DNA of 64,000 nucleotides from an uncultured Candidatus Binatia bacterium (GTDB taxonomy: Bacteria > Desulfobacterota > Binatia > UBA9968 > JAJDTQ01): NCBI GenBank assembly GCA_964291295.2, contig OZ219754.1, forward strand, positions 1,792,001 through 1,856,000, in the 5' to 3' direction. The notes below the pieces were generated by a model that made no database searches, was not told the DNA's origin, and saw only the letters and a program-made list of their open reading frames with translations. The stretch's first letter is position 1; each line of letters opens with the position of its first letter. Positions 6,028 through 31,989 of the stretch are shown here, one piece after another. The position numbers were made by a program, and so were the translations under genes.

Positions 6028-6787
6028 ACGACTCATTCCCTGCCTCGACGTCGACGCCGGCCGGGTGGTGAAGGGGATCCGGTTCGTGGAGATCCGCGAC
6101 GCCGGGGATCCGGTGGAGGCGGCCCGGGCCTACGACGCGGCCGGCGCGGACGAACTCTGCTTCCTCGACATCACCGCCTCCCACGAGCAGCGCGGGATCA
6201 TCCTGGACGTGGTGGCGCGCACGGCCGACGCGGTTTTCATGCCCCTGACCGTGGGCGGCGGGATCCGGGAGAACGCGGACATCCGCAGGCTGCTGAAGGC
6301 CGGCGCCGACAAGGTCTCCATCAACACCGCGGCGGTGGCGCGTCCGGAGTTCGTGCGCGAAGCGGCGGAGATCTTCGGCAGCCAGTGCATCGTGGTGGCC
6401 ATCGATGCCAAGCGGGTGGAGGACCACTGGGAGGTGTTCACCCACGGTGGCCGCAAGCCCACCGGCATCGACGCGTGCGCGTGGGCCGAGCGCATGGCGG
6501 CCAGCGGCGCCGGCGAGATCCTGCTGACCAGCATGGACCGCGACGGTACCCGGGACGGCTACGATCTGCCGCTGACCCGGGCGATTGCCGACCGGGTCAC
6601 GGTTCCGGTCATCGCCTCGGGCGGCGTCGGCAATCCGGAACACCTCCACGACGGTTTCGTGGAGGGGCATGCCAGCGCCGCGCTGGCGGCGTCCATCTTC
6701 CACTACGGCGAGTACACCATCGGCGAGTGCAAGCGCTATCTGGAAGAGTGCGGGGTTCCGGTGCGGCCCACCCATGCCCAAGGCTGA
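6017..6787 (+). CDS. hisF: imidazole glycerol phosphate synthase, cyclase subunit
   Basis: [47 protein letters not shown]. Confidence 0.97.
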
Positions 6788-6799
6788 CTTGGTCGAAGC

Positions 6800-7340
6800 A
6801 TCTGCGCAGCGAACTCGCGACCCACGGCATCCCGGGGAGAAACGGGGCCAGAGAGGCCGCCAGAGCTCACGGTCGCATTGAGCATCGCGGTCCCGGCTTG
6901 GTTTCCCGGCCTTGTCAACCATCCCCATGTCGCGCAGCTCCTTCGCATCGCTCGCGAGCGCGGCACCGACGTGACCACCCTTGAACACGCCGGTGGCATC
7001 ACCTCGGTGCCGCCTCCCCGGAGCCGCTCCTCGCCGGGAACCGTGGCCATGGATCGGTGGCCGTACACCCTCACATCAGGGGCACGACCTTCCAGGAAGA
7101 CGCCTGCCTTGCGTGCCAGCGCTTCGCCTCCGAGAACAACGGCCGTGCAGCCGCATCGCCGTCGTGCTCGTCATCCACGGGACTCCGTTCGACAGCGTCG
7201 CCTCCGCAACCCGCCACCTTGCGCTCAAGCGCGAGGACGCTTTCGCCGTTATTCTCTCACCCTGAACATCACAACGCCGGACCATGGGACGTCCGGCGCT
7301 TTGCCAGCACCCGCACGTCCGCGCTGACCGAAACCCTGTC
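6800..7340 (+). mobile_element. degenerate ISAs1-family transposase remnant (3' part)
   Basis: Frame-broken fragments AHGRIEHR, HPHVAQLLRIARER..EHAGGITS and TFQEDAC resemble ISAs1 transposase motifs (HGRIExR, FxED). Confidence 0.6.
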
Positions 7341-7601
7341 ACCGCAGGCTCCCGCCCGCCCATTCATCGGTCCGCGCCCGGCTGCCTTGTCGCTGGGTGC
7401 ATGCCATCAACCATCGAAGCCTCTGGACAAACACACCCGGGTTCTTCCGCTGTTCCCCAACGTGGGATGATCCTGGCCGGCAAAGCCGCGGGTATTGCAA
7501 CCGCTCGCTGTTTCGGCTATCAGGTATGGGCTGTCCGCTTCGGCCGTGCGCCGGCACGGACATTCTCTCGACCATACCATTCGAGACGGAAGGGTGAGGC
7601 C

Positions 7602-10600
7602 ATGACGAAAATACCGCGCGGTTGTTCGGACGGGAAACACGGTTGCCTCATGCACGCGGGGCCTTCGTCCCCCCCCCCCCCCCCCCCCCCCTTCCAACAT
7701 CCACTCTCTCTCTGGGCGCGAGGCTGATCCGGTGCGCGCCTCCGCCAGAAGCCCACGACACCTGAGGGCGGGACTGCTCGCCGGCCTCTTCCTGCTCACG
7801 TTCGCCGCCGCCCTCGCGCCGCAGACGGCACAAGCACAGATCATTGATCTCACCGTAACGCCGGGCAACGGCAAGGTCGACCTGTCCTGGAGCTGGAGTG
7901 GCATTACCGGACAAATCAGGTGGCGGTACCACACATTCGGAGCTGCAACCAACAGCGCAACGGTTACGCCTTCCCCAGGGAAGCGAACTGGTACAGCGAC
8001 GATAACTGGTCTGACCAACGGCCAGATATATGATATCGAGATGCGCGCGAGTCGTCCTAGCGGGATTCATATTGGAACTTCCAACCGTGTCAGGGTGGTG
8101 CCGAACGACCTCGTCATCGTGTCCGCCACCGGGCTGGACAGCACAATACGGCTCAAATGGGACTATCAAGGTAGCCAAACCGGCAGTGGCTGGCAACATC
8201 AGACTTTTGAGGGAACAGGCGGCGGCCCATGGAAACAGCTGGCAGACTATTCTGCCGCCCGCGGGGCTGATATTCGAAATCTTGTTAACGGCAGAACCTA
8301 CAATATCGCTATTCGGTATCTGAGCGGCGGGGGCGGCTCCCACGCTGATTCCGTGCTCCACAACATTGGCTGGGTCAGCGCCACGCCGCGGGGGTCGACC
8401 CCGACGCTGGTTTCCGGCTCGAACGCCAGCGCCGCGGTCGAGTCGACCGGGGCGACGACGCTGGTGTGCTACAACCTTCTGGCGGCCTCGCAAGAAACCC
8501 CGCAAGGCTTGGTCAAGTATCTGGAGGCGCGCGCGGGCATGAGCGCCGTGCCTGCGCACAGCGTACTTGCCGATTCGAGTCTCGGCGTCGAGATCACCCA
8601 GGCCCCCGCCGGCATCACCAAGGGGCGCGGCGTCAACCTCAGTCCCTGCGTCAATCTCGGAGTGGGCGCGCATACCGTCACCTGGAGCTGGAAGGGCCGC
8701 GACGGCACTGCCGTGGCCGCCACGACCTCCACCACGATCACCGTGGCGGAGAGGGTCTCCAGTCCCAAGACGATCACGCTGTCGGCGTCCCCGTCGGCCA
8801 CGATCACCGAGGGCAACTCCGGTTCGACGGATGTCACCATCACCTTCACCCTCAGTGAGTCTGCGCCCGCGGGCTTCTCGGTTAGCTTGGGTTATCCCGC
8901 GGACATTGGCACAGCCACTGCCTCCGGCAAGGGATCTAACCCCTGCGATCCGCCTCTGCTTCCGAAGGGCACGGACGTGTGCCTCCCGGACGGCGTTATT
9001 GTCTCCATCGCCGAAGGCGAGACCCAGGGCACGAAGATCGTCCGCATACTCGGTGACACCCGGGAAGAACCGGACGAGACGATAAACCTCATCGGCTACC
9101 AGGACGACTGGGCCACCGGCAGGCTCACCCTGACCATCAGGGACGACGACGAGGGCGCCACCAAACCGGCCAGGCCGAGGGGCCTGTCGGCGGAAGCGGG
9201 CAATGCGCAGGTGGTGCTGACCTGGACCGATCCGGAGGACGATTCGATCACGGGGTATCAGGTGCAGAAGAAGAAGGGGAGCGCGGCCTGGGGCAGCTGG
9301 ACCGACCTCTCCGGTTCGGACGCGGACACCGTGATCCACACGGTGACGAGTCTGGACAACGACAGCGAATACCGCTTCCGCATCCGGGCGAAGAACGGTT
9401 CCGGCAACAGCGCCGCGTCGGCGGCGGTGAGCGCGACGCCGGCTGCCAATCCCAAGCCGTCCAAGCCGGTGCTGACGGCGGTGGCGGGTAACCGTTCGGT
9501 CACCCTGAGCTGGCCCGCCCAGACGAATATCGGGAATTGGGGTTACGAGTACAAGAGCGGGGCCGGCAGTTGGATCGCCAGGACGGTTTCGGACGGCAGC
9601 GCGACAAGCACGGTGGTGACGGGACTGACGGCCGGGACGGAATACACGTTCCGGCTGTTCGCCCGCCGCAGCAGCGGCGGGTCGTACCTTTCGTCGGTGT
9701 GGTCGGACCAGGTGACGGCGACGCCGTATGCCCTGTCGGCGCCGGTGCTGACAGGGGCCACATCGAATGTGGCCAGCTATAGTCTGGGGGTCCAACTGAC
9801 GTGGACCCATAGTGGTGACCTTCTCCCCAGTGGAGCCAGCTGGTTTCATTGGCAGATGGGTTATCGTCTCAAGGGGAGCACCACTTGGCAGGAAACCGCT
9901 CGCACGATCAGTTCGTCGGTACGTTCGGCGCGGACGGTTTCCTGGGAGGGAGGCGGCTACCCCGAGGGTGCGGTGGTGGAGGTGCGGGTCCGGGGACGGG
10001 GGTTGAATGATCAGACTGGCGTCTGGTCCAATATCCGCACGGTGACCCTCAGTGACGATGATGATGACAGGCCAGCCCTGACGTTCACCAGAGCGCCGGT
10101 GACGGTGGAGCCCGGGGCCGCCGCGACCTACACGGTGGCGTTGACGCAGGCGCATGCGGGCACACTGTCGATCGCGAGCGACGACACGGCCACGGCGACG
10201 GTGGACCCGGCGAGCCTGACCTTTACGGCGGTCAACTACAACACGGGTCAGACGGTGACGGTGACCGGGGTCGGCAACGGCACGGCGACGATCAACCACG
10301 CCTTCCGGCTGACGGGAGCTTCCGCGGATGCGATACCGGACGCGGGGACGGTGGACGTGACGGTGGCCGATACGCCGGGGGTGACGGTCTCGACGGCGGT
10401 GCTGACGGTGGTGGAGGGTGACTCCGGCACCTACACGTTGCGGCTGAACAAGGCGCCGTCGAGCGATGTGACGATAAGGGTGGACGGCGCTTCGGGGGAC
10501 GTGACGGTGGCGGGCGCGCCGCTGACCTTCACCACGTCCAACTGGAACAAGCCGCAGACGGTGACGGTGAACGCGGGGACGGACACGGACAATATCAGGG

Positions 10601-13065
10601 ATCCCGATGTGACGCTGACCCACAGCGCGGCGGGCGGCGGCTACGGTTCGGTGGGCATCGCCTCGGTGGTGGTGAGCGTGACGGAGAAGGATGTGGCGCC
10701 GGCGAAGCCGACGGGCCTGGCTGCGGCGGCGGGCGACGGTTCGGTGACGCTGAGCTGGACGGACGCGGGCAATCCGACCATCACGAAGTGGCAATACCGG
10801 CGGAAGGCCGGCGGCGGGGCTTGGGGCGATTGGAAGGACATTGGGGGCTCCGGAGCGATCACCACCAGCCACAAGTTGACCGGGCTGACCAACGGCACCG
10901 CGTATCAGTTCGAGGTGCGCGCGGTGAACGGTGCCGGCAACGGCGCCGGCCCGGATGCGCCGGTGAGCGCGACGCCGGCGGACGCCACGCTCCCGCCCGC
11001 GCCGCCCGCGGCGGGCGTGAGCGTGAGGGTGACGCCGACGGCGCTGACGGTGGAGGAGGGTGGCTCCGGGAGCTACACGGTGGTGCTGGGTGCGGAGCCC
11101 ACGGACACGGTGACGGTGACGGTGGGCGGGGCATCGGGGGAGGTGACGGCGTCGCCGCAGCGCCTGACCTTCACGGTTTCGAACTGGAGCGAGGCGCAGG
11201 GGGTGACGGTGAGCGCGGCTCGTGACGCGGACATGGCGGACGACAGGGCGACGCTGACGCACGGAGCGAGGGGCGGGGGCTATGAATCGGTGAGCATCGC
11301 CTCGGTGGCGGTGCGGGTGAGGGACACGACGCCGGTGCTGAGTCTGGAGACGGACCCGGCGGCGGTGGCCGAGGGGGAGAACATCCGCCTCACGGTGACC
11401 TCGGACCGTGCGCTGACGGGCAGTCTGACGGTGAGTCTGACGCTGGCGGCGCGCGACGGCGGCGGCTTCGATGGGGAGGACCTTCCGGGTGGGCTGGGGC
11501 CGCGTTCGTTGGATGTGGTGTTCGGCGCCACGGCGAGCCGGAGGGGTTTGGTGATGATACCCACCAGGGTGGATGGGGAGGCGGAAGGGAGGGAGTCGTA
11601 CCGCATCACGCTGAACGCGGCGCCGGGCTATGCGGTGGGGGTGGATGCGGTGGCGGAAGGAGTGCTGGAAGAGGGTTCGTCGTCGTCGGCGAACCGGGTG
11701 AACCGTGCGATCCTGCCGCATGTGGCGGCGCTGGCGCTGTCGCAGACGCTTGAGGCGGTGACGGGGCGGATCGAAGCGGTGTCGGATGGCGGTGCGGGTG
11801 GTACGGTGCGTTTTGGAGCGGCGCCGGGGATGGTGGTGGATGATGAGTGGGTTGGTCCGGGAGGTCGGGGGCAAGGGGGGCCGGGCTTGCGAGAGTTGCT
11901 GGACGGGGCCTCCTTCGCGCTGCCGCTGGGAGCTTCGGGGGCGGGAGGGGCGGCGGCGCCGGCGTTGTGGGGAGTGGGGGAGTGGCGGTCGCTGTCGGGT
12001 TCGGAGCGGGATCTTTCCTGGGACGGCGGGCTGTGGTCGGGGTATCTGGGGGCGGACGTGCGGGTTCGCCCGGACCTGTTGGCGGGGGCGGCGGTGTCGT
12101 ATGCGAAGGGCAAGGTGGATGCGGTGTCCCGGGGTGGTGATGGGACGAAAAGCAGGCACGAGAGCCGGGTGGTGTCGGTGAATCCGTATCTGGCGTGGCT
12201 GCGTGCGGACGGCACGACGCTGTGGGCGAGTGCGGGCTATGGGAGGGGCGAGGTGCGGATCACCGAGGCGGGAGCGGCGGCGCGCACGGCGGACCTGTCC
12301 CAGTGGAGTGGGGCGGCGGGCGGGCGCGGGGTGCTGTTGGAGGATCCGGAGCTCATCGCCGGGGGCACCACGCGAGTGGCGGTGAAGGGGGAGGGCTCCC
12401 TGGTCCAACTGGACACGGAGGCCGGCGACGGTCTGACCGAGTTGACGGTGAAGGCGAGCCGACTGCGGCTGATGCTGGAGGGGTCCTGGGAGCACCGGGT
12501 CGGGGGCGATGCGACGCTGACGCCGGCACTGGAAGTGGGCGTGCGTCATGACGACGGCGACGTTGGGCAGGGCGGCGGCGTGGAGGTGGGGGCCGGCGTG
12601 ACCTGGCGCGACCCGGGTGCCCGTCTGACCGCGGAGTTGCGGGCCCGGATGCTGGCGGTGCACGAGCGGGACCGGGAGGAATGGGGCGTGAGCGCCTTGG
12701 TGCGCCTTGACCCCGGGGCCGACGGGCGGGGGAGCTACCTGAGCTTCGGCCCGACCCACGGTCGCACGGCAAGCGGTCTGGGGCGGTTGTTCGACTACGG
12801 CTCGGCCATGGACAGCGGGGCGGGGGCGGGAGAGAGCCGCCTGGAGGCGGAGATGGGGCACGGCATCGGCATCGCCGGCCCGGCGCCGCTGGCGCTGCTG
12901 ACGCCTTATGCCGGGCTCAGCCTGGCGGAGTCGGGCGAGCGCACGCTGCGCCTGGGCGCACGCTACAGCCTGGGCCCGGGGGTCGCCCTGGGAATCGAGG
13001 GCACAAGCCGGCCCTGGACCAACGGCGAGCAGGGCCTCATGCTGCGCGGTGCGCTGCGCTGGTGA
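7602..13065 (+). CDS. large autotransporter-type adhesin 1 (fibronectin type III and Calx-beta/Ig-like repeats, C-terminal autotransporter beta-barrel); currently frameshifted at a poly-C tract, long ORF 7732-13065
   Basis: Signal peptide ..LLTFAAALAPQTAQA|Q; repeated FN3 units (PAKPTGLAAAAGDGSVTLSW..YQFEVRAVN); beta-barrel ending LMLRGALRW; RBS-backed ATG 7602 upstream of C23. Confidence 0.85.
7669..7691 (+). repeat. poly-C homopolymer (C23) in the 5' coding leader of autotransporter 1
   Basis: Counted directly: C run from 7669 to 7691. Confidence 0.95.
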
Positions 13066-13319
13066 GGAGAACGCCGGGGCAGGAAATGAACGGAGGCCGC
13101 CGCTCGGCTGGCCGATGCCCTCCACCTGTAGTCGTGAGGGAACGGGCTTTGTTCACTATCGGGTGCGGACGCTGAAACCGTGACTCCGCCCACCACCCGA
13201 GCCAGCGGTCCGGGTGCCGGCTCTTGAAAGCGCCCGCCGATGCACCCCGAAAGCTTGGTGGCATCGGCGGTGGCGCGATGCGCAGAGAAATGTGGAACGC
13301 CGCGCCAAGGAAAGCCATA

Positions 13320-14087: not shown

Positions 14088-15035
14088 TCAGCCGCCGCTC
14101 TCCAGTTCCGCCAGGTAACGCTCGGCGTCGATGGCGGCCATGCAGCCGGTTCCGGCGGCGGTGACGGCCTGGCGGTAGACGCGGTCCTGGACGTCGCCGC
14201 AGGCGAATACGCCCTCCAGCGTGGTCCGGGTGCCGTCGTGGGTCTTGATGTAGCCCAGTTCGTCCATTTCCAGAACGCCCTCGAAGAGTTGCGAGTTGGG
14301 CTGGTGCCCGATGGCGATGAAGACGCCGTCGCAGGCGAAGGTACGGTCCGCGCCGGTTCGGACGTCCCGCAGCGTGACGCCGGTGACGCCGCCGTCCTGC
14401 GGATCGCCGTGGATGTCCGCCACCGTGGTGTTCCAGATGAAGTCGATCCCGGGGTTGGCCCGGGCGCGATCCTGCATGATTCCGGAGGCCCGGAGCTGGT
14501 CGCGGCGGTGCACGACGAAAACCTTGCTGGCGAAGCGGGTGAGGAACGTGGCCTCTTCCATGGCGGTGTCTCCGCCGCCCACCACGATGACCTTCTTGTC
14601 CTTGAAGAAAAAGCCGTCGCAGGTGGCGCAGGCGGAGACCCCGTGTCCCATCAGCCTGTTTTCGGCGTCCAGCCCCAGCAGCTTGGCGGTGGCGCCGGTG
14701 GCGATGATCAGGGCGTCGCAGGTGTAGCGGTCGCTGCCCGCCCGCAGCGCCATGGGCCGGCTTCCGAGTTCCACGGCGGCAACATCCCCGAAGACGATCC
14801 GGGTGCCGAAGCGTTCCGCCTGCCTGCGGAACTGCACCATCATGTCCGGCCCGAGAATGCCGTCCGGGAAGCCGGGGTAGTTCTCGACGTCGGTGGTAAT
14901 GGTGAGCTGGCCCCCGGGCTGGGAACCCTCCACCACCAGCGGTCCGAGGTTGGCGCGGGCCGTGTAGAGGGCGGCGGTGAGGCCCGCCGCTCCCGAACCG
15001 AGGATGACGACGCGGTAATGAGTCTGCTCTGCCAT
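14088..15035 (-). CDS. trxB: thioredoxin-disulfide reductase
   Basis: [54 protein letters not shown]. Confidence 0.97.
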
Positions 15036-15149
15036 GGTTTCATTCATACCATACGGGCCGCTTCGCTTGTAGGTCGGCCAGGCTGCGGCGGCTTGCATTC
15101 GCGGTGCCGGAAGATACACTGAGCGCCGGACGCTCGGGGAGGATACAGG

Positions 15150-15635
15150 ATGGCGACATTGTCCCATGTCGATGAACAGGGGCGGGTGAGGATGGTGGAT
15201 GTCACCGGCAAGGAGGTGACCCGGCGGGTTGCGGTGGCCGGAGGCGTGGTGACCATGCGCCCGGAGACCTTGGCCGCCATTGCCGGGGGGCGGATTCCCA
15301 AGGGCGATGTGCTGGCGGTGGCGCGCATCGCCGGGATCATGGCCGCCAAGAAGACGTCCGAGCTCATACCGCTGTGTCACCCGCTGCCCATCAGCAGCGT
15401 GGAGGTCACGCTCACCCCGCGGCAGGAGCCGCCGTCGGTGGAGATCGAGGCCGCCGTGCGCATCCAGGGCCGCACCGGCGTGGAGATGGAGGCGCTTACC
15501 GCGGTGGCGGTGGCGGGTCTCACCCTCTACGACATGTGCAAGGCCGTGGACCGGGAGATTGCCGTCGGCGAGATTCGCCTTCTGCGCAAGAGCGGAGGCA
15601 AAAGCGGTCCATTCGAGAGAAGGCCGGCCGACTGA
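15150..15635 (+). CDS. moaC: cyclic pyranopterin monophosphate synthase
   Basis: [41 protein letters not shown]. Confidence 0.97.
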
Positions 15636-26338: not shown

Positions 26339-29300
26339 ATGACGGGGACGCCGGGCGATGTCGGGATGCATGACCTGCGGCTGTCCGGGCGGGGCATGAG
26401 CGCCTCACGCGCGCGCGAACCCGAACTCGTTGCCCCCCCCCCCCCCCCCGAAAACCGGCTGTGGGGCTTAGTCCGGTGGGCGCCCTCGGGAGAACCGCCA
26501 GCCGCCTGAAGGCGGCATTCGCCCTCGTCTTCTTCGCGCTGGTGACGCTCGCCGTGCTCGCGCCGCAGGACGCGCGGGCGCAGCAAAAGCCGGCGCTCAC
26601 GGCAACCCCGGGTGTCGGCAGTGTCACGCTCAACTGGACCCGTACCGGCAACACTGGATTTGGATATTGGGTTTACCGACAGGGGGTCACCGGAGGAGGT
26701 TACGGCGACTGGATCGATATACCGGGCGGCGCCACCATCAGAACCCACACGGTCACAGGGTTGACCCCCGGCACCTCCTATACCTTCCAGGTGGCAAGGG
26801 CGGAAGGTACCGGTCTCAACTTTTCCGTCTTCGCTAGTGGGGGAGGGTACTCGAACGGGGCCACGGCGACGCCAACGGCGGCCACTTCCACCAAGACGAT
26901 CACCCTGTCGGCGACATCGACCTCGATCACCGAGGGCAACTCCGGCTTTACGGACGTGACGGTCACCGTGACGCTCGGCGAGGCGGCGCCGGCGGCGGAT
27001 CCGGATTTGGGGATTTTTTCGCTCTCCCTTATTTCTGCCAGTCCCCCCGGCACGGCCACAGGCTCCAGCAAGGGAGCAAACCCCTGCACGGCGCCGCTGA
27101 ATCCGGCGGACACCGACTGGTGCCATCCGGACGGGGCCAACATCTCCATCGCCGAAGGTGAGACCATGGGCACGAAGAAAGTGCGTATTCTCGCCGACAC
27201 CCGGGACGAGCCGAACGAGACCATCAAGCTCGTTTCTTCGGCTGCGCATCCTGGCTGGACCGACGGCAGCCTCACCCTGACCATTACCGACGACGATCCC
27301 CCCACCACGGCCGTTCCTGCCGCGACAGCGGGACTGGGTTCGGATGCAGGGGATCGGAAGGTGACGCTCATATGGGAGGCTGTCAGGGATTCCAATCCGG
27401 CCATTACCAAGTGGCAGTATCAGCAGAAGACCGGGTTGGCGGCCTACGGCGCATGGACCGATATTTCCAACTCGGCGGAAGGTGAACCCAATAACGGCAG
27501 ATATGTGGTGACGGGTTTGAGCAACGGGACGGAATACAAGTTCAAGGTGCGTGCGGTGAACAGTTCCGGCAACGGTGTGGTATCCAATGAGACAACGGCA
27601 ACCCCCACTGGCAGCAAGACCATCACCCTCACAACCGATCAGCCCAATAACCGTATCACGGAGGGTGATACGGAAAGGAAGAACATAGTCCTCACCGTTA
27701 CCCTCAGCGAGGATGCACCGGACGAGTTTCTTGTCAGCATCAGCTATGGTGGGGGTATCGGCACCCTGGTGGGCAATGATAACGGAGGTTCCGACAACTG
27801 CAGCAATCCGACCCCCGCGACAGCAGATATCTGCTTCCCCGGCGGCCCTTCCGCGAGTAGCCTCCCCATAGAGTCTGGGCAAAGAACAGCCACAAGGACG
27901 GTTGGCATTCTTCCGGACACCTTGGAGGAGGGGGATGAGTACTTCTCCATGCGGGCCAGCACCAGCACAGGGGGCTGGTCGGGCGACTCCATCCTCATCA
28001 CCATTGTTGACAATGATGGCACCACCGCCAAACCCGCCAAGCCCACGGGGTTGTCGGCGGAGGCGGGCAACGGTCAGGTGGAGCTGACGTGGACGGACCC
28101 GGAGGACGATTCGATCACGGGGTATCAGGTGCAGCAGAGGAAGGGGAGCGCCGCCTGGGGCAGCTGGACCGACATTTCCGGTTCGGACGCGGACACCACG
28201 AACCACACGGTGACGGGTCTGGACAACGACAGCGCGTACCGTTTTCGCATCCGGGCGCAGAACGGCGGCGGCAACAGCGCCGCGTCGGCGGTGGTGCGGG
28301 CGACGCCGGCGGAGCCCGCTACGGCCCCCGCCAAGCCGACGGGCTTGGGCGCGACGAAGGGCGACACGTGGGTCTACCTGACGTGGACCGATCCGGGCGA
28401 CGCCAGCATCACCCGTTGGGAGTACCGGCAGAAGGCCGGTACCGGAAACTACGGTTCGTGGATGCGGATGACGGGTTCCGGCGCGGCGACGGTGAAGCAC
28501 CAGATCCCGGGCCTGAAGAACGGCACGGTCTACGCGTTCAGGATTCGCGCGGTGAACGGCAACGGCAACGGCGCGGCGTCGGAGGAGGTGACGGCGACGC
28601 CGAATCCGCCGGTGGCGCCGGTGTTGACGGCAGCCACTTCAACGACCAATCGGAATCTCACGCTGACCTGGACCCATGCCGGCTCGACCGCGGTCGATTA
28701 CATCGACGGCGGGGGTGCCAGCGCCGTCTGGTGGCAAACGGGGCATCGGCTGAAGGGGTCCACCACCTGGACGGCGTACGGCGGGAACGTATCCGCCGCG
28801 AGGGGCAACTCCCGGCGCACCTCGTCGGCGCTCCTCGGCTCCGCTGCTGCCTACCCGAACGGAGCATCGGTGGAGGTGGCGATTCGGGCATCGGGCGATT
28901 CCTTATTGCTGGGCAGGTCGGATGTCAAGGGCCCCTGGTCGAACGAGCGCACGGTCACGTTCATGAACACCGATACGAACGCGCTGACGATCACCGGAGC
29001 GCCGGTGACGGTGGCGCCCGGTTCCACGGCGGTCTACAGGGTGGCGCTGACGAAGGCGTATGCGGGGACGCTGTCGGTCAAGAGCGACGACACGGACACG
29101 GCGACGGTGAGTCCGCCGAATCTGACGTTTACCGCGGACAACTACAGCACGGCGCAGGATGTGACGGTGACCGGGGTCAAGAACGGCACGGCGACCATCA
29201 ACCACGCCTTTCGGCTGACGGGGGCCACGGTGGATGCGATACCGGATGCGGGCACGGTGGACGTGACGGTGGCGGATGCGCCGGGGGTGACGGTGTCGAC

Positions 29301-31989
29301 GGCGGCGCTGACGGTGGCGGAGGGCGGCAGCGGCGCCTACACGATGCGGCTGAACACGGCGCCGTCGAGCGATGTGACGATAATGGTGGACGGCGCTTCG
29401 GGCGACGTGACGGTGGCGAATGCGACGCTGACCTTCACCACGGTCAACTGGAACATGCCGCAGACGGTGACGGTGAACGCGGGGACGGACACGGACACGA
29501 CGCCGGACGCCGCCGTGACGCTGACCCACAGCGCCTCGGGGGGCGGCTACGCTTCGGTGAGCATCGCCTCGGTGGTGGTGAGCGTGACGGAGAGCGGCGT
29601 GGTGCCGGCGAAGCCGACGGGCCTGGCGGCGGCGGCGGGGGACGGTTCGGTGACGCTGAGCTGGACGGACGCGGGCAATCCGACCATCACGAAGTGGCAA
29701 TACCGGCGGAAGGCCGGTGGCGGGGCCTGGGGCGATTGGACGGACATCGGGGGCTCCGGAGCGAGCACCACAAGCTACGAGGTGAGCGGGCTGACCAACG
29801 GCACCGCGTATCAGTTCGAGGTGCGCGCGGTGAACGGTGCCGGCAACGGCGCTGGCCCGGATGCGCCGGTGAGCGCGACGCCGACGGGCGCCACGCCGCC
29901 ATCCACGCCTCCCGGGACAACGCCGACGCCGCCTGCGGCGGTCGGGAGCGGGAGCGTGCGGGTGACGCCGGCGGCGCTGACGGTGGAGGAGGGCGGCACC
30001 GGGAGTTACACGGTGGTGCTGGGTGCGGAGCCCGCGGGGACGGTGACGGTGACGGTGGGCGGGGCATCGGGGGAGGTGACGGCGGTGCCGCGGCGCCTGA
30101 GCTTCACGGTGTCGAACTGGAGCGAGCCGCAGCGGGTGACGGTGAGCGCGGCTCGTGACGCGGACACGGCGGACGACAGGGCGACGCTGACGCACGGAGC
30201 GAGGGGCGGGGGCTATGATTCGGTGAGCATCGCCTCGGTGGTGGTGCGGGTGAGGGACACGACGCCGGTGCTGAGTCTGGAGACGGACCCGGCGGCGGTG
30301 AGCGAGGGGGAGGACATCCGCCTTGTGGTGACCTCGGACCGTGCGCTGACGGGCAATCTGACGGTGAGCCTGACGCTGGCGGCGCGCGACGGCAGCGGCT
30401 TCGATGCGGAGGACCTTCCGGGGGGACTGGGGCCGCGTTCGTTGGATGCGGTGTTCGGCGCCACGGCGAGCCGGAGGGGAGTGGTGATGATCCCCACCCG
30501 CACGGATGGAGAGGTGGAAGGCCGGGAGTCGTACGGCATCAGGCTGAACGCGGCGGAGGGCTATGCGGTGGGGGTGGATGCGGAGGCGGAGGGAGTTCTG
30601 GAAGAGGGTTCGTCGGAGGGGGCGGATCGGGTGAACCGTGCGATCCTGCCGCAGGTGGCGGCGATGGCGCTGTCGCAGACGCTGGAGGCGGTGACGAGGC
30701 GGATCGAAGCGGTGTCGGATGGCGGTGTGGGCGGTGCGGTGCGTTTTGGAGCGGCGCCGGGGAAGGCGGTGGAGGAGGAGTGGGTTGGCTTGGGAGACCC
30801 GGGGCAACAGGGACCGGGCTTGCGGGAGATGCTGGACGGGGCCTCCTTCGCGCTGCCGCTGGGTGCTTCGGGGGCGGGAGGGGCGGCGGTGCCGGCGTTG
30901 TGGGGAGTGGGCGAGTGGCGGTCGCTGTCGGGTTCGGAGCGGGATCTTTCCTGGGAGGGCGGGCTGTGGTCGGGGTATCTGGGGGCGGACGTTCGGGTTC
31001 GCCCGGACCTGCTGGCGGGGGCGGCGGTGTCGTATGCGAAGGGCAAGGTGGATGCGGTGTCGAAGAGGGGCGACCGGACGAAAAGCAGGCACGAGAGCCG
31101 GGTGGTGTCGGTGAATCCGTATCTGGCGTGGCTGCGTGCGGACGGCACGACGCTGTGGGCCAGCGCGGGTTACGGGAGGGGCGAGGTGCGGATCGCCGAG
31201 GCGGGAGCGGCGGCGCGCACGGCGGACCTGTCGCAATGGAGTGGGGCCGCGGGCGGGCGCGGGGTTCTGATGGAGGATACGGAGATCATTGCCGGGGGCA
31301 CCACGCGAGTGGCGGTGAAGGGGGAGGGCTCCCTGGTCCAACTGGGCACGGAGGCCGGCGACGGTCTGACGGAGTTGACGGTGAAGGCGAGCCGACTGCG
31401 GCTGATGCTGGAGGGGTCGTGGGAGCACCGGGTCGGGGGCGATGCGACGCTGACGCCGGCACTGGAAGTGGGCGTGCGTCATGACGACGGCGACGTTGGG
31501 CAGGGCGGCGGGGTGGAGGTGGGGGCCGGCGTGATCTGGCGCGACCCGGGTGCCCGTCTGACCGCGGAGTTGCGGGCCCGGATGCTGGCGGTGCACGAGC
31601 GGGACCGGAAGGAATGGGGCGTGAGCGCCCTGGTGATCCTGGACCCCGGGGCGGACGGTCGGGGGAGCTATCTGAGCTTCGGCCCGGCCCACGGTCGCAC
31701 GGAAAGCGGTGTGGGGGGGTTGTTCGACTACGGTCCGGCCACGGACAGCGGGGCGGGGGCGGAGGAGAGCCGTCTGGAGGCGGAGCTGGGGCACGGCATC
31801 GGCATCGCCGGCCCGGCGCTGCTGACGCCTTATGCCGGGCTCAGCCTGGCGGAGTCGGGCGAGCGCACGCTGCGCCTGGGTGCGCGCTACCGCTTGGGGT
31901 CGGGGGTCGCCCTGGGAATCGAGGGCACAAGCCGGCCCTGGACCAACGGCGAGCAGAGCCTCATGCTGCGCGGTGCGCTGCGCTGGTGA
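26339..31989 (+). CDS. large autotransporter-type adhesin 2 (FN3 and Calx-beta/Ig-like repeats, C-terminal beta-barrel); currently frameshifted at a poly-C tract, long ORF 26461-31989
   Basis: Signal peptide ..FFALVTLAVLAPQDARA|Q; FN3 repeats; C-terminus LMLRGALRW; GGAGG-N8-ATG 26339 upstream of C17; paralogue of 7602-13065. Confidence 0.85.
26433..26449 (+). repeat. poly-C homopolymer (C17) in the 5' coding leader of autotransporter 2
   Basis: Counted directly: C run from 26433 to 26449. Confidence 0.95.

Follow-up and report, generated by a model that had tools for sequence, protein, structure and literature searches.

A C23 tract in the conserved leader of an FN3-repeat autotransporter gene as a candidate translational frame selector

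Introduction

Repeat-slippage phase variation is a hallmark of host-adapted pathogens. The closest described counterparts of the locus reported here are NalP and MspA of Neisseria meningitidis, which carry poly-C tracts of 6-15 nt and are ON only at in-frame lengths, as judged by immunoblot (PMC3723659). For NalP, the same study reports protein from one length class in three (7, 10 or 13 C), with lengths that vary among strains (PMC3723659). Like the protein described here, NalP and MspA are presented there as type Va autotransporters with a sense-strand poly-C tract near the 5' end, the length of which sets the reading frame (PMC3723659), as we predict for the present locus too; the tract here is much longer, at C23 (C9-C29 in relatives). 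Unlike those of NalP and MspA, the present tract lies in a separate, conserved leader ORF, 5' of a full second initiation site (SD and start) and the signal peptide, and precedes a passenger of FN3 repeats instead of a protease. A poly-C/G-driven mechanism has also been proposed for phase variation in a high-GC bacterium, Bordetella pertussis (PMC1891110). The organism studied here comes from a group of which MAGs are the main record and, unlike N. meningitidis, is not a human pathogen. A Pfam search found no serine-protease passenger homologous to that of NalP/MspA, the passenger being of FN3 type only; the resemblance is one of mechanism, not of family.

Other Neisseria surface proteins carry repeats in the signal-peptide-coding region, namely poly-G in pilC and CTCTT in opa. 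As would be the case here, the repeat falls in the part of the precursor that is cleaved off, and in-frame length changes spare the mature protein. The pilC and opa tracts, however, lie inside a single signal peptide behind the sole start, whereas the present tract precedes the n-region and is followed by a second possible start. Repeats are also found in the 5' untranslated regions of adhesin genes, such as the poly-G of Moraxella catarrhalis uspA1 and the heptamers of Haemophilus hmw1A/hmw2A. These resemble the present case in that a hypermutable tract between promoter and adhesin start can act as a volume control, but they are untranslated, whereas the present tract lies in a frame opened by a conserved SD-ATG. 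Extended signal peptides are known from autotransporters and two-partner secretion proteins, as exemplified by the ESPR (PF13018) and by the long FhaB signal peptide. Like the fused product predicted here, the proteins concerned are large secreted adhesins in which additional N-terminal residues precede a standard n-h-c signal peptide. The extension predicted here differs in its greater length, in its low conservation at the peptide level and in the variable run of prolines that breaks it up, and PF13018 was in no precomputed Pfam list of the listed homologues, extended ones included.

In this study, we examine the leader of an autotransporter gene in a 64,000-nt stretch of DNA (the window) from an uncultured Candidatus Binatia bacterium. 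The mechanism proposed is of the kind known from NalP and MspA in Neisseria; what is new is the leader with two starts, together with its occurrence across phyla.

Results

The ORF behind the tract runs from the second start to 13065 (7732..13065, + strand) and encodes 1777 aa comprising a signal peptide, FN3 repeats and a beta-domain. Its N-terminus shows an n-h-c pattern ending in AQA, and the Sec-type signal peptide, VRASARSPRHLRAGLLAGLFLLTFAAALAPQTAQA (7732..7836, +; read by eye), is likely cut before QIIDL. The passenger consists of FN3 repeats (PF00041, 110 bits), and Pfam assigned it FN3-type domains only. The Autotransporter beta-domain, PF03797, matched at 11971..12597 (+) with 41.2 bits (cut-off 26) in a scan restricted to the last 419 aa, the domain being missing from the results of the whole-protein scan; paralogue 2 scored 45.2 bits for the same domain. 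The C-terminus reads ..LMLRGALRW. On its predicted beta-barrel, signal peptide and passenger, the product is a type Va autotransporter, and the 1777-codon ORF behind the tract is intact with all of these domains present.

The tract itself (7669..7691, +) is an uninterrupted run of 23 C, and homologous leaders carry C9-C29 at the same site. Genome-wide, G/C runs number 938 at 6 nt, 117 at 7 nt, 15 at 8 nt, 8 at 9 nt, 2 at 10 nt and 0 at 11 nt, despite which there are 35 runs of 12-27 nt. Because so many long runs are present in a genome with none of 11 nt, the C23 tract is non-random and far beyond chance; its length exceeds that predicted from base composition, as is characteristic of the repeat tract of a contingency locus. 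Long homopolymers are prone to assembly error, and the exact length of this 23-nt run comes from one assembly and may be off by at least one base. Among Logan contigs, those of one sequencing run break within the tract, a contig of another run of the same study has it 5 nt shorter (in the assembled contig, not in reads), and those of a third run of that study, in which next to none of the window's sampled words were listed, match in short conserved pieces only.

Upstream of the tract, a first SD-like element, GGAAGG (7588..7593, +), lies 8 nt 5' of ATG 7602 and aligns with GGGAGG of the other leaders; the sequence directly 5' of this ATG (7602-7604) is gacggaagggtgaggcc. In the C23 state the ATG opens a leader ORF of 41 codons (7602..7727, +), conserved in its SD and start, that translates as MTKIPRGCSDGKHGCLMHAGPSSPPPPPPPFQHPLSLWARG and closes at TGA 7725-7727. 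The large ORF occupies the next frame, and since that frame is open back to 7606, tract lengths of 3n+1, such as that left by the loss of one C, would join ATG 7602 to it without a stop through ..PPPSNIHSLSGREADPVRASARS.. The stretch after the poly-proline run in the fused precursor would read ..SNIHSLSGREADPV.., and the precursor is predicted to have about 56 residues ahead of the hydrophobic core. The three length classes give fusion (3n+1), a stop at 7725 (3n+2) and a stop at 7763 (3n), the last at a TGA (caccTGAggg; 7763..7765, +) that would close an ORF spanning 7622..7765. C23 lies between the conserved SD-ATG 7602 and the large ORF, the placement expected of a contingency locus, and the leader that holds it is very probably transcribed and translated.

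Eight paralogous leaders in this genome have an identical order of elements, with tracts of C14-C23. One of them (26339..26478, +) carries ATG 26339 in the context gacgggaggatgagatcATGACG, C17 at 26433-26449 and a conserved second start at GTG 26476; the ORF caller begins the gene at 26461 (26461..31989, 1842 aa), and the frame of ATG 26339 is likewise out of register with this ORF. The first-pass annotation had described the context of this ATG, the uninterrupted C23 run, the 41-aa frame closed at TGA 7725-7727 and the stop-free fusion that follows the removal of one C, and re-analysis bore out all of these. The upstream SD-ATG is conserved in six of the eight leaders, and six of the eight have an ATG frame that reaches the tract without a stop; C1:5012 has lost the ATG and kept C19, and the ORF of C1:586116 ends before reaching the tract. 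Two of the six with an open ATG frame, C1:3071512 (C15) and C1:896843 (C17), are in-frame alleles. Twin leaders that are otherwise near-identical differ only in phase, C15 being in frame and C14 out. In paralogue 2, the stop before the second start is TAG instead of TGA, with frame and distance unchanged.

The same annotation had considered GTG 7732 to lack a clear RBS. This is incorrect, as a second SD-like element, GAGG (7720..7723, +), precedes it by 8 nt; the family has GGGG or GAGG at this site, and the whole SD-stop-GTG arrangement, G[G/A]GG-C-TGA-nCC-g-GTG, is conserved among its members. The TGA that closes the leader ORF at C23 (7725..7727, +) stands 4 nt 5' of GTG 7732, and all 28 aligned leaders have a stop (TGA or TAG) in the same place and frame. 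A TGA aligned to 7763 is likewise found in 28 of 28; outside this set, L040 and L045 lack it. In the 28 aligned leaders the second start is GTG in 26, ATG in one, and lost in one; GTG 7732 is also the exact expected beginning of an ordinary 35-aa Sec signal peptide. Because the second start is conserved, has an SD and sits at the beginning of the signal peptide, the OFF states may be leaky, or the leader ORF may act by coupling instead of fusion. The ON/OFF switch proposed initially is supported in part, by a non-random tract in a conserved SD-ATG leader, with strict ON/OFF behaviour a hypothetical outcome. The related proposal of a poly-proline stretch in an extended n-region agrees with the in-frame homologues, 21 of 54 database proteins with the same signal peptide reading through P3-P11 into it; gene callers place the start of 31 of the 54 at the second start.

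The leader is shared by 25 of 45 homologous MAG loci, with C10-C29, and three further loci have C9. The MAGs with homologous loci are labelled Alphaproteobacteria, Pseudohongiella, Porisulfidus and Thermoanaerobaculia. The layout is the same throughout, with an SD-ATG, the poly-C tract, a second SD and start, and the signal peptide, and in every leader with a tract, own or MAG, the sense strand carries C and never G. The first SD and ATG are conserved in most of the 25, L044 and L045 having GTG for ATG with the start kept. Six of the 25 are in frame, nine terminate immediately ahead of the second start and 10 run past it to a stop about 38 nt further downstream. This near-even spread, found in MAG and own leaders together, fits an absence of selection for the fused state in the assembled consensus sequences, and the counts for the 25 MAG leaders do not discriminate between models of fusion and of coupling.

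As the copies differ in frame and substitutions in the leader ORF are mostly non-synonymous, judged by eye, the leader peptide appears hardly constrained; the nucleotides between tract and second start, for example, are read as KTGCG in L043 and as RKPAVG in paralogue 2. The nearest start of L038, a homologue with no tract, is about 47 codons before the hydrophobic core, and P0044, a tract-less protein, also has no second start; long N-terminal extensions therefore occur in the family. Identity of the leader DNA across genomes is 74-97%, versus 68-76% for the beta-domain DNA, which points to exchange of, or strong selection on, a presumed regulatory cassette. The leader DNA was not found among the 18 same-genus and 12 same-order genomes searched. 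The names of the MAGs that hold the closest relatives point to a putative marine sponge microbiome.

Promoter-like hexamers, TTGCAA (7495-7500) and TATCAG (7518-7523), are spaced by 17 nt upstream of the leader (7495..7523, +) and form a candidate promoter; they align with TTGAAA/TTGCAA ... TTACAG/TATAAA of the paralogous leaders and were missed by a strict sigma-70 scan of 7200-7900, which gave 0 sites. A role of C23 as a promoter spacer was rejected, as there were 0 sigma-70 sites and the tract lies 67 nt behind the conserved SD-ATG. This rejection does not extend to the G17 run at 55782, elsewhere in the window. The leader RNA (7585-7800) folds at -70.6 kcal/mol, and each of 200 shuffled versions is more stable (z = +2.39). 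For 28 of the 36 leaders, the near-duplicates L012, L019, L020 and L006 and the long-insert forms L040, L045, L008 and L009 being left out, the consensus fold is weak, at -8.26 kcal/mol with covariation in 2 of 15 pairs. Masking of the second SD or start by RNA structure was rejected on these two grounds. A search of 7300-7900 against Rfam at E up to 1 gave 0 matches.

Discussion

We read C23, tentatively and with slightly less than even confidence, as a hypermutable contingency tract in the translated leader of a gene for a type Va autotransporter with FN3 repeats, where it would select the reading frame. Transcription probably starts upstream of the leader, and ribosomes would initiate at the strong SD and ATG 7602 and traverse the tract, translating it as proline whatever the frame. 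Slipped-strand mispairing during replication would alter tract length and with it the frame of the ribosomes that leave the tract. At 3n+1 lengths the leader would be fused to the signal peptide, giving an N-terminally extended precursor with poly-proline, the presumed ON state; the extension would be cleaved along with the signal peptide, leaving the mature adhesin unchanged. At C23 (3n+2) the leader would end at TGA 7725, 4 nt before GTG 7732, and at 3n lengths it would end at TGA 7763. In both of these states the 5.3-kb gene would at best be weakly translated from the second, weaker start (GAGG and GTG), and Rho, acting on untranslated C-rich RNA, may truncate the transcript. In favour of this reading are the excess of long tracts, the shared order of elements in own and MAG leaders, the conserved first SD and start, the in-frame alleles and the twin pair, the coding poly-C of a lipoprotein family, the long extensions of tract-less homologues and the precedent of NalP and MspA. 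Counting against it are the conserved second start, the even spread of frames, the weak constraint on the peptide, the two own leaders that lack the ATG-to-tract frame, and the roughly 56 residues predicted ahead of the hydrophobic core of the fused precursor. Were GTG 7732 active independently of the leader, the presumed OFF states would still yield protein. RNA polymerase slippage on a tract this long could also blur the frames.

Under the main alternative, which we consider unlikely, GTG 7732 would be the true start, weak when alone, and the leader a regulatory uORF in which the tract sets where ribosomes stop, so forming a three-state rheostat. In the C23-type frame, ribosomes would stop at TGA 7725 and re-initiate at GTG 7732 by coupling, yielding the native protein; in the 3n frame they would pass over the start and terminate about 30 nt into the gene, occluding initiation and leaving output low; and in the 3n+1 frame the extended fusion would be made. 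Such coupling calls for a strong first SD and ATG and a weak second SD (GGGG/GAGG) and GTG, which is the arrangement seen. The conserved SD-stop-start motif, in which all 28 leaders have the stop 4 nt ahead of the second start (TAG in paralogue 2 likewise) and 27 of 28 have GTG or ATG as that start, argues in the same direction, as do the 31 of 54 database homologues called from that start. Moreover, the T on which this TGA depends occupies a third codon position of the main frame and is invariant, among neighbouring third positions that vary, and on both sides of the tract the peptide is poorly constrained while the nucleotides are conserved. The entire block is, however, 85-100% conserved, with no strong distinction of the stop, and simple ON/OFF switching also predicts out-of-frame stops shortly past the tract. 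Nor does RNA structure appear to hide the second SD (z = +2.39; weak consensus fold with 2 of 15 pairs covarying), and L047, with no second start, is in frame with its upstream ATG. To our knowledge, a coupling switch selected by a homopolymer has no precedent. Still bolder, and in our estimate decidedly unlikely, is the proposal that the leader is a horizontally shared regulatory cassette among the adhesin genes of unrelated bacteria in one host-associated community, working as such a rheostat rather than as a plain ON/OFF frameshift. Its elements would be a strong SD-ATG, a short ORF free of constraint, a poly-C selector and a stop 4 nt before a weak second start, and poly-proline stalling and Rho loading on poly-C RNA may sharpen its states.

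Two further explanations dispense with frame selection. We find it improbable that the tract acts on the RNA, with GTG 7732 as the sole relevant start and tract length tuning transcript yield or stability, for instance by loading Rho or by causing RNA polymerase to slip, comparable to the repeat tracts in the 5' UTRs of adhesin genes. The tract does lie 3' of promoter-like hexamers and 5' of a complete SD, start and signal peptide, and the leader, rich in C, has less structure than its shuffled counterparts. Rho loading sites are C-rich with little structure, and the Rho gene is present in the genome. The near-even spread of frames and the retention of C19 in C1:5012, a leader with no ATG, are also in keeping with action on the RNA. 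Left unexplained would be the conserved strong SD with ATG or GTG and its open frame into the tract, the restriction of the sense strand to C and never G, and the stops of both other frames that flank the second start. The other explanation, that nothing functional is present and the tract is a homopolymer-length error of assembly or sits, with no regulatory use, in a frameshifted or idle copy of the family, is very improbable. Homopolymers are error-prone, one run's contigs break in the tract and a contig of another has it 5 nt shorter, and in most copies the upstream ATG is out of frame. Against this stand the 35 tracts of 12-27 nt beside zero of 11 nt, the occurrence of tracts at the same site in dozens of homologous genes from independent assemblies, and the intact 1777-codon ORF with all its domains. 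Long tracts are expected to decay without selection.

If C23 and its counterparts are frame-selecting contingency tracts, a slippage device with unusually long tracts heads a whole family of giant FN3 adhesins, the closest gene relatives of which are found in uncultivated MAGs spanning several classes and phyla. A search of a literature library listed no paper on repeat-driven phase variation in sponge symbionts. Should the tracts switch, beneficial or commensal symbionts would vary their surface stochastically, as pathogens do, and such variation could act against host recognition, phages or neighbours. The dual-start layout also offers a clean system in which to test whether a homopolymer could direct translation to more than two outputs. 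In the same genome, a lipoprotein family carries poly-C directly after the lipobox, in frame in four of five copies (C16, C19, C19 and C22) and out of frame in the remaining one (C20); with most copies in frame, the organism therefore uses poly-C inside coding sequence.

Poly-C tract and reading frames at the autotransporter locus

An uninterrupted run of 23 C is present at 7669-7691, as the first-pass annotation had read it, and the ATG at 7602, which follows gacggaagggtgaggcc, opens a frame that translates the tract as seven prolines and ends at TGA 7725-7727, giving the 41-aa peptide proposed there. The GTG at 7732, the start of the 1777-aa ORF in the ORF list, lies one base off this frame. 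Because the frame of the 1777-aa ORF is free of stops back to 7606, tracts of 3n+1 length would join the two frames with no stop between them, as proposed there; tracts of 3n length would terminate the leader at TGA 7763-7765. The layout recurs at a paralogue with ATG 26339, C17 at 26433-26449 and an ORF to 31989, and there too the ATG frame is out of register with the ORF.

The 1777-aa ORF contains FN3 repeats (PF00041, 110 bits) and, with its last 419 aa scanned alone, an autotransporter beta-domain at the C-terminus (PF03797, 41.2 bits; cut-off 26), and the protein ends in ..GALRW; an ordinary signal peptide, VRASARSPRHLRAGLLAGLFLLTFAAALAPQTAQA, is predicted by eye from GTG 7732. The ORF is flanked by housekeeping genes; one, of the His_biosynth type, ends at 6787, and the other, for a pyridine-nucleotide-disulphide oxidoreductase, occupies 14088-15380. 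No Pfam family matched the antisense ORF at 7648-13125 (1825 aa), which is a high-GC shadow.

The stretch is contained in two runs of a single study, in assembled contigs only. In one, contigs both end and begin within the C23 tract; in the other run, 7350-7703 is covered by a contig of 1182 nt with 5 letters fewer. Since De Bruijn contigs are unreliable at homopolymers, the shorter contig and the breaks at 7669-7691 are only a hint of length change at this locus.

A second start downstream of the tract

It had been claimed that GTG 7732 has no clear RBS, but GAGG is found at 7720-7723, 8 nt upstream. Of 36 homologous leaders, 28 were aligned, with near-duplicates (L012, L019, L020, L006) and leaders with long inserts (L040, L045, L008, L009) omitted. 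GTG serves as second start in 26 of these and ATG in one (L044), and one (L047) has lost it; a stop codon stands 4 nt upstream of its position in all 28; in paralogue 2, TAG replaces TGA with distance and frame unchanged. Two conserved starts are thus candidates for this gene: one ahead of the tract, which is strong, and another behind it, which is weaker.

Conservation and spread of the leader

Homologous leaders with C14-C23 precede eight autotransporter genes in the window's own genome (G000); in a ninth gene, of giant size, the leader is a different one and carries C21. A search with the beta-domain alignment, restricted to one genome per species, yielded 45 loci in MAG records titled Alphaproteobacteria bacterium, Pseudohongiella, candidatus Porisulfidus, Thermoanaerobaculia and others. 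At 26 of them a homopolymer of at least 10 nt lies no more than 400 nt from the open frame's 5' end, in every case C on the coding strand. Exclusion of L053, whose tract is inside an ORF, leaves 25 leaders with C10-C29; three further loci have C9. In all of them the elements follow in the order ACGGGAGG, 8 nt, ATG (GTG in L044 and L045), 20-50 codons, poly-C, 26-66 nt, G[G/A]GG-C-TGA-nCC-g-GTG, and a signal peptide of the GALGRTARRLKAGLAALFLIALAAALAPQDAQAQ type.

Identity between G000 and MAG loci is 74-97% over 100-nt flanks on the tract, against 68-76% for beta-domain DNA, the flank figure being the best of seven own leaders per locus, a choice that favours it. Leader DNA was not found in the 18 other genomes of the genus that were searched. 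Of the 28 genus genomes (G000 counted), 26 contain related, more distant beta-domains, with a best score of 297 bits outside G000 versus 853 among its own paralogues.

At C1:2911900-2912100, on a contig of G000 (L003/L010), ctccgggcgcggggctgatccggtg, the SD2-stop-GTG segment normally just 3' of the tract, is duplicated upstream of SD1-ATG, and in MAG leaders the flank upstream of the tract and the one downstream have their best matches in different own paralogues. The duplication and these mixed flanks suggest that leader modules have been shuffled by recombination.

Two giant autotransporter-type open frames are seen in G000, C1:2348994-2381015 and C1:5030 across the contig start to ~3618040, both headed by poly-C tracts (C21, C19). 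In one, ~10,400 codons precede the beta-domain match; provided that contig C1 is a circle, the other would number ~11,600. Among congeners, open frames that finish with related beta-domains reach 19,556 aa.

Interpretation of the tract

We tentatively favour a poly-C contingency tract in which slipped-strand changes of length would choose the reading frame of a translated leader, and a 3n+1 length would fuse leader and gene, the productive state. What the first pass observed holds, and its reading as a switch is supported in part. Fusion is favoured by the commonness of in-frame alleles, by a twin leader pair whose sole difference is C15 (in frame) versus C14 (out), by the long extensions of the tract-less leader L038 and the database protein P0044, neither with a nearer start, and by a G000 lipoprotein family with poly-C inside the coding sequence, in frame in four of five copies. 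NalP and MspA provide the precedent (PMC3723659).

Frame counts do not discriminate between the starts. In the MAG leaders the upstream start shares the gene's frame in 6/25; its frame terminates shortly ahead of the second start in 9/25 and ends ~38 nt past it in 10/25; among own leaders the conserved ATG is open into the tract in six of eight, two of these six in frame. The N-terminus of the in-frame paralogue, a query biased towards extended forms, gave 89 matches among proteins, 54 with this signal peptide: 31 called from the second start, 21 through P3-P11 and two extended without a proline run. A rheostat in which three tract states set translational coupling is unlikely; it would suit the side-by-side conservation of weak SD, stop and start, the reading of identical nucleotides in differing frames across copies, and the mostly non-synonymous substitutions (by eye) of the leader ORF. 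An effect of the tract at the RNA level is quite improbable. Folding of the leader and a consensus fold revealed no structure masking the second start, and Rfam had no family match in the leader region. Runs of G/C in G000 (3.70 Mb, 66% G+C, three contigs) of 6, 7, 8, 9, 10 and 11 nt number 938, 117, 15, 8, 2 and 0, and those of 12-27 nt 35, which is more than chance; two peaks of this kind are the mark of hypermutable tracts under selection. That the tract does nothing functional, or is an artefact, is highly improbable.

A frame-selecting tract is a kind of device already known; what is new is the length of the tracts, their position ahead of a second start that is complete in itself, and a cassette spread over phyla in uncultivated bacteria. 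Among the papers listed by a literature search, none concerned repeat-driven phase variation in sponge symbionts.

Other tracts in the window and genome

G000 encodes MutS, MutL, Rho and EF-P. G/C tracts of at least 14 nt occur in 24 of the 28 genus genomes (G000 counted) and differ strongly among congeners, with none in four and an abundance (at least 100 overlapping matches) in seven, including G000; in fragmented congener assemblies many lie at contig ends.

A G17 in the window (55782-55798) sits between a perfect TTGACA and ATAAAG in a promoter-spacer layout (site 55774-55833), 35 nt upstream of an ORF at 55833-57989 (718 aa) with a TbpB_B_D match (65 bits) and a Slam-dependent surface lipoprotein match below cut-off. 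The same flanks surround three more G000 tracts of 15-17 nt (C1:1431620, 2164767, 2553056). Unlike the C23 leader tract, G17 is a switch of the kind that acts on transcription.

Five paralogous lipoprotein genes of ~560 aa (C1:351886, 874052, 1555359, 2270508, 2799053) have poly-C immediately 3' of the lipobox, in frame with C19, C16, C22 and C19 and out with C20, and read as a clear case of in-ORF phase variation. Long poly-C/G tracts within long open frames at C1:43450, 485035, 829088, 1005727 and 2287382 may mark phase-variable restriction-modification genes; one frame encodes ..ILDPACGSGHFLL.., which we take to resemble a SAM-methyltransferase motif. A further class (C1:667172, 699787, 502203, 1209581, 1268213, 2138419) has flanks ..TTGAC(T/C)TGA-G(n)-AGTATATG.. 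on the other strand, a layout that again resembles a promoter spacer; the ORFs downstream are short or unclear.
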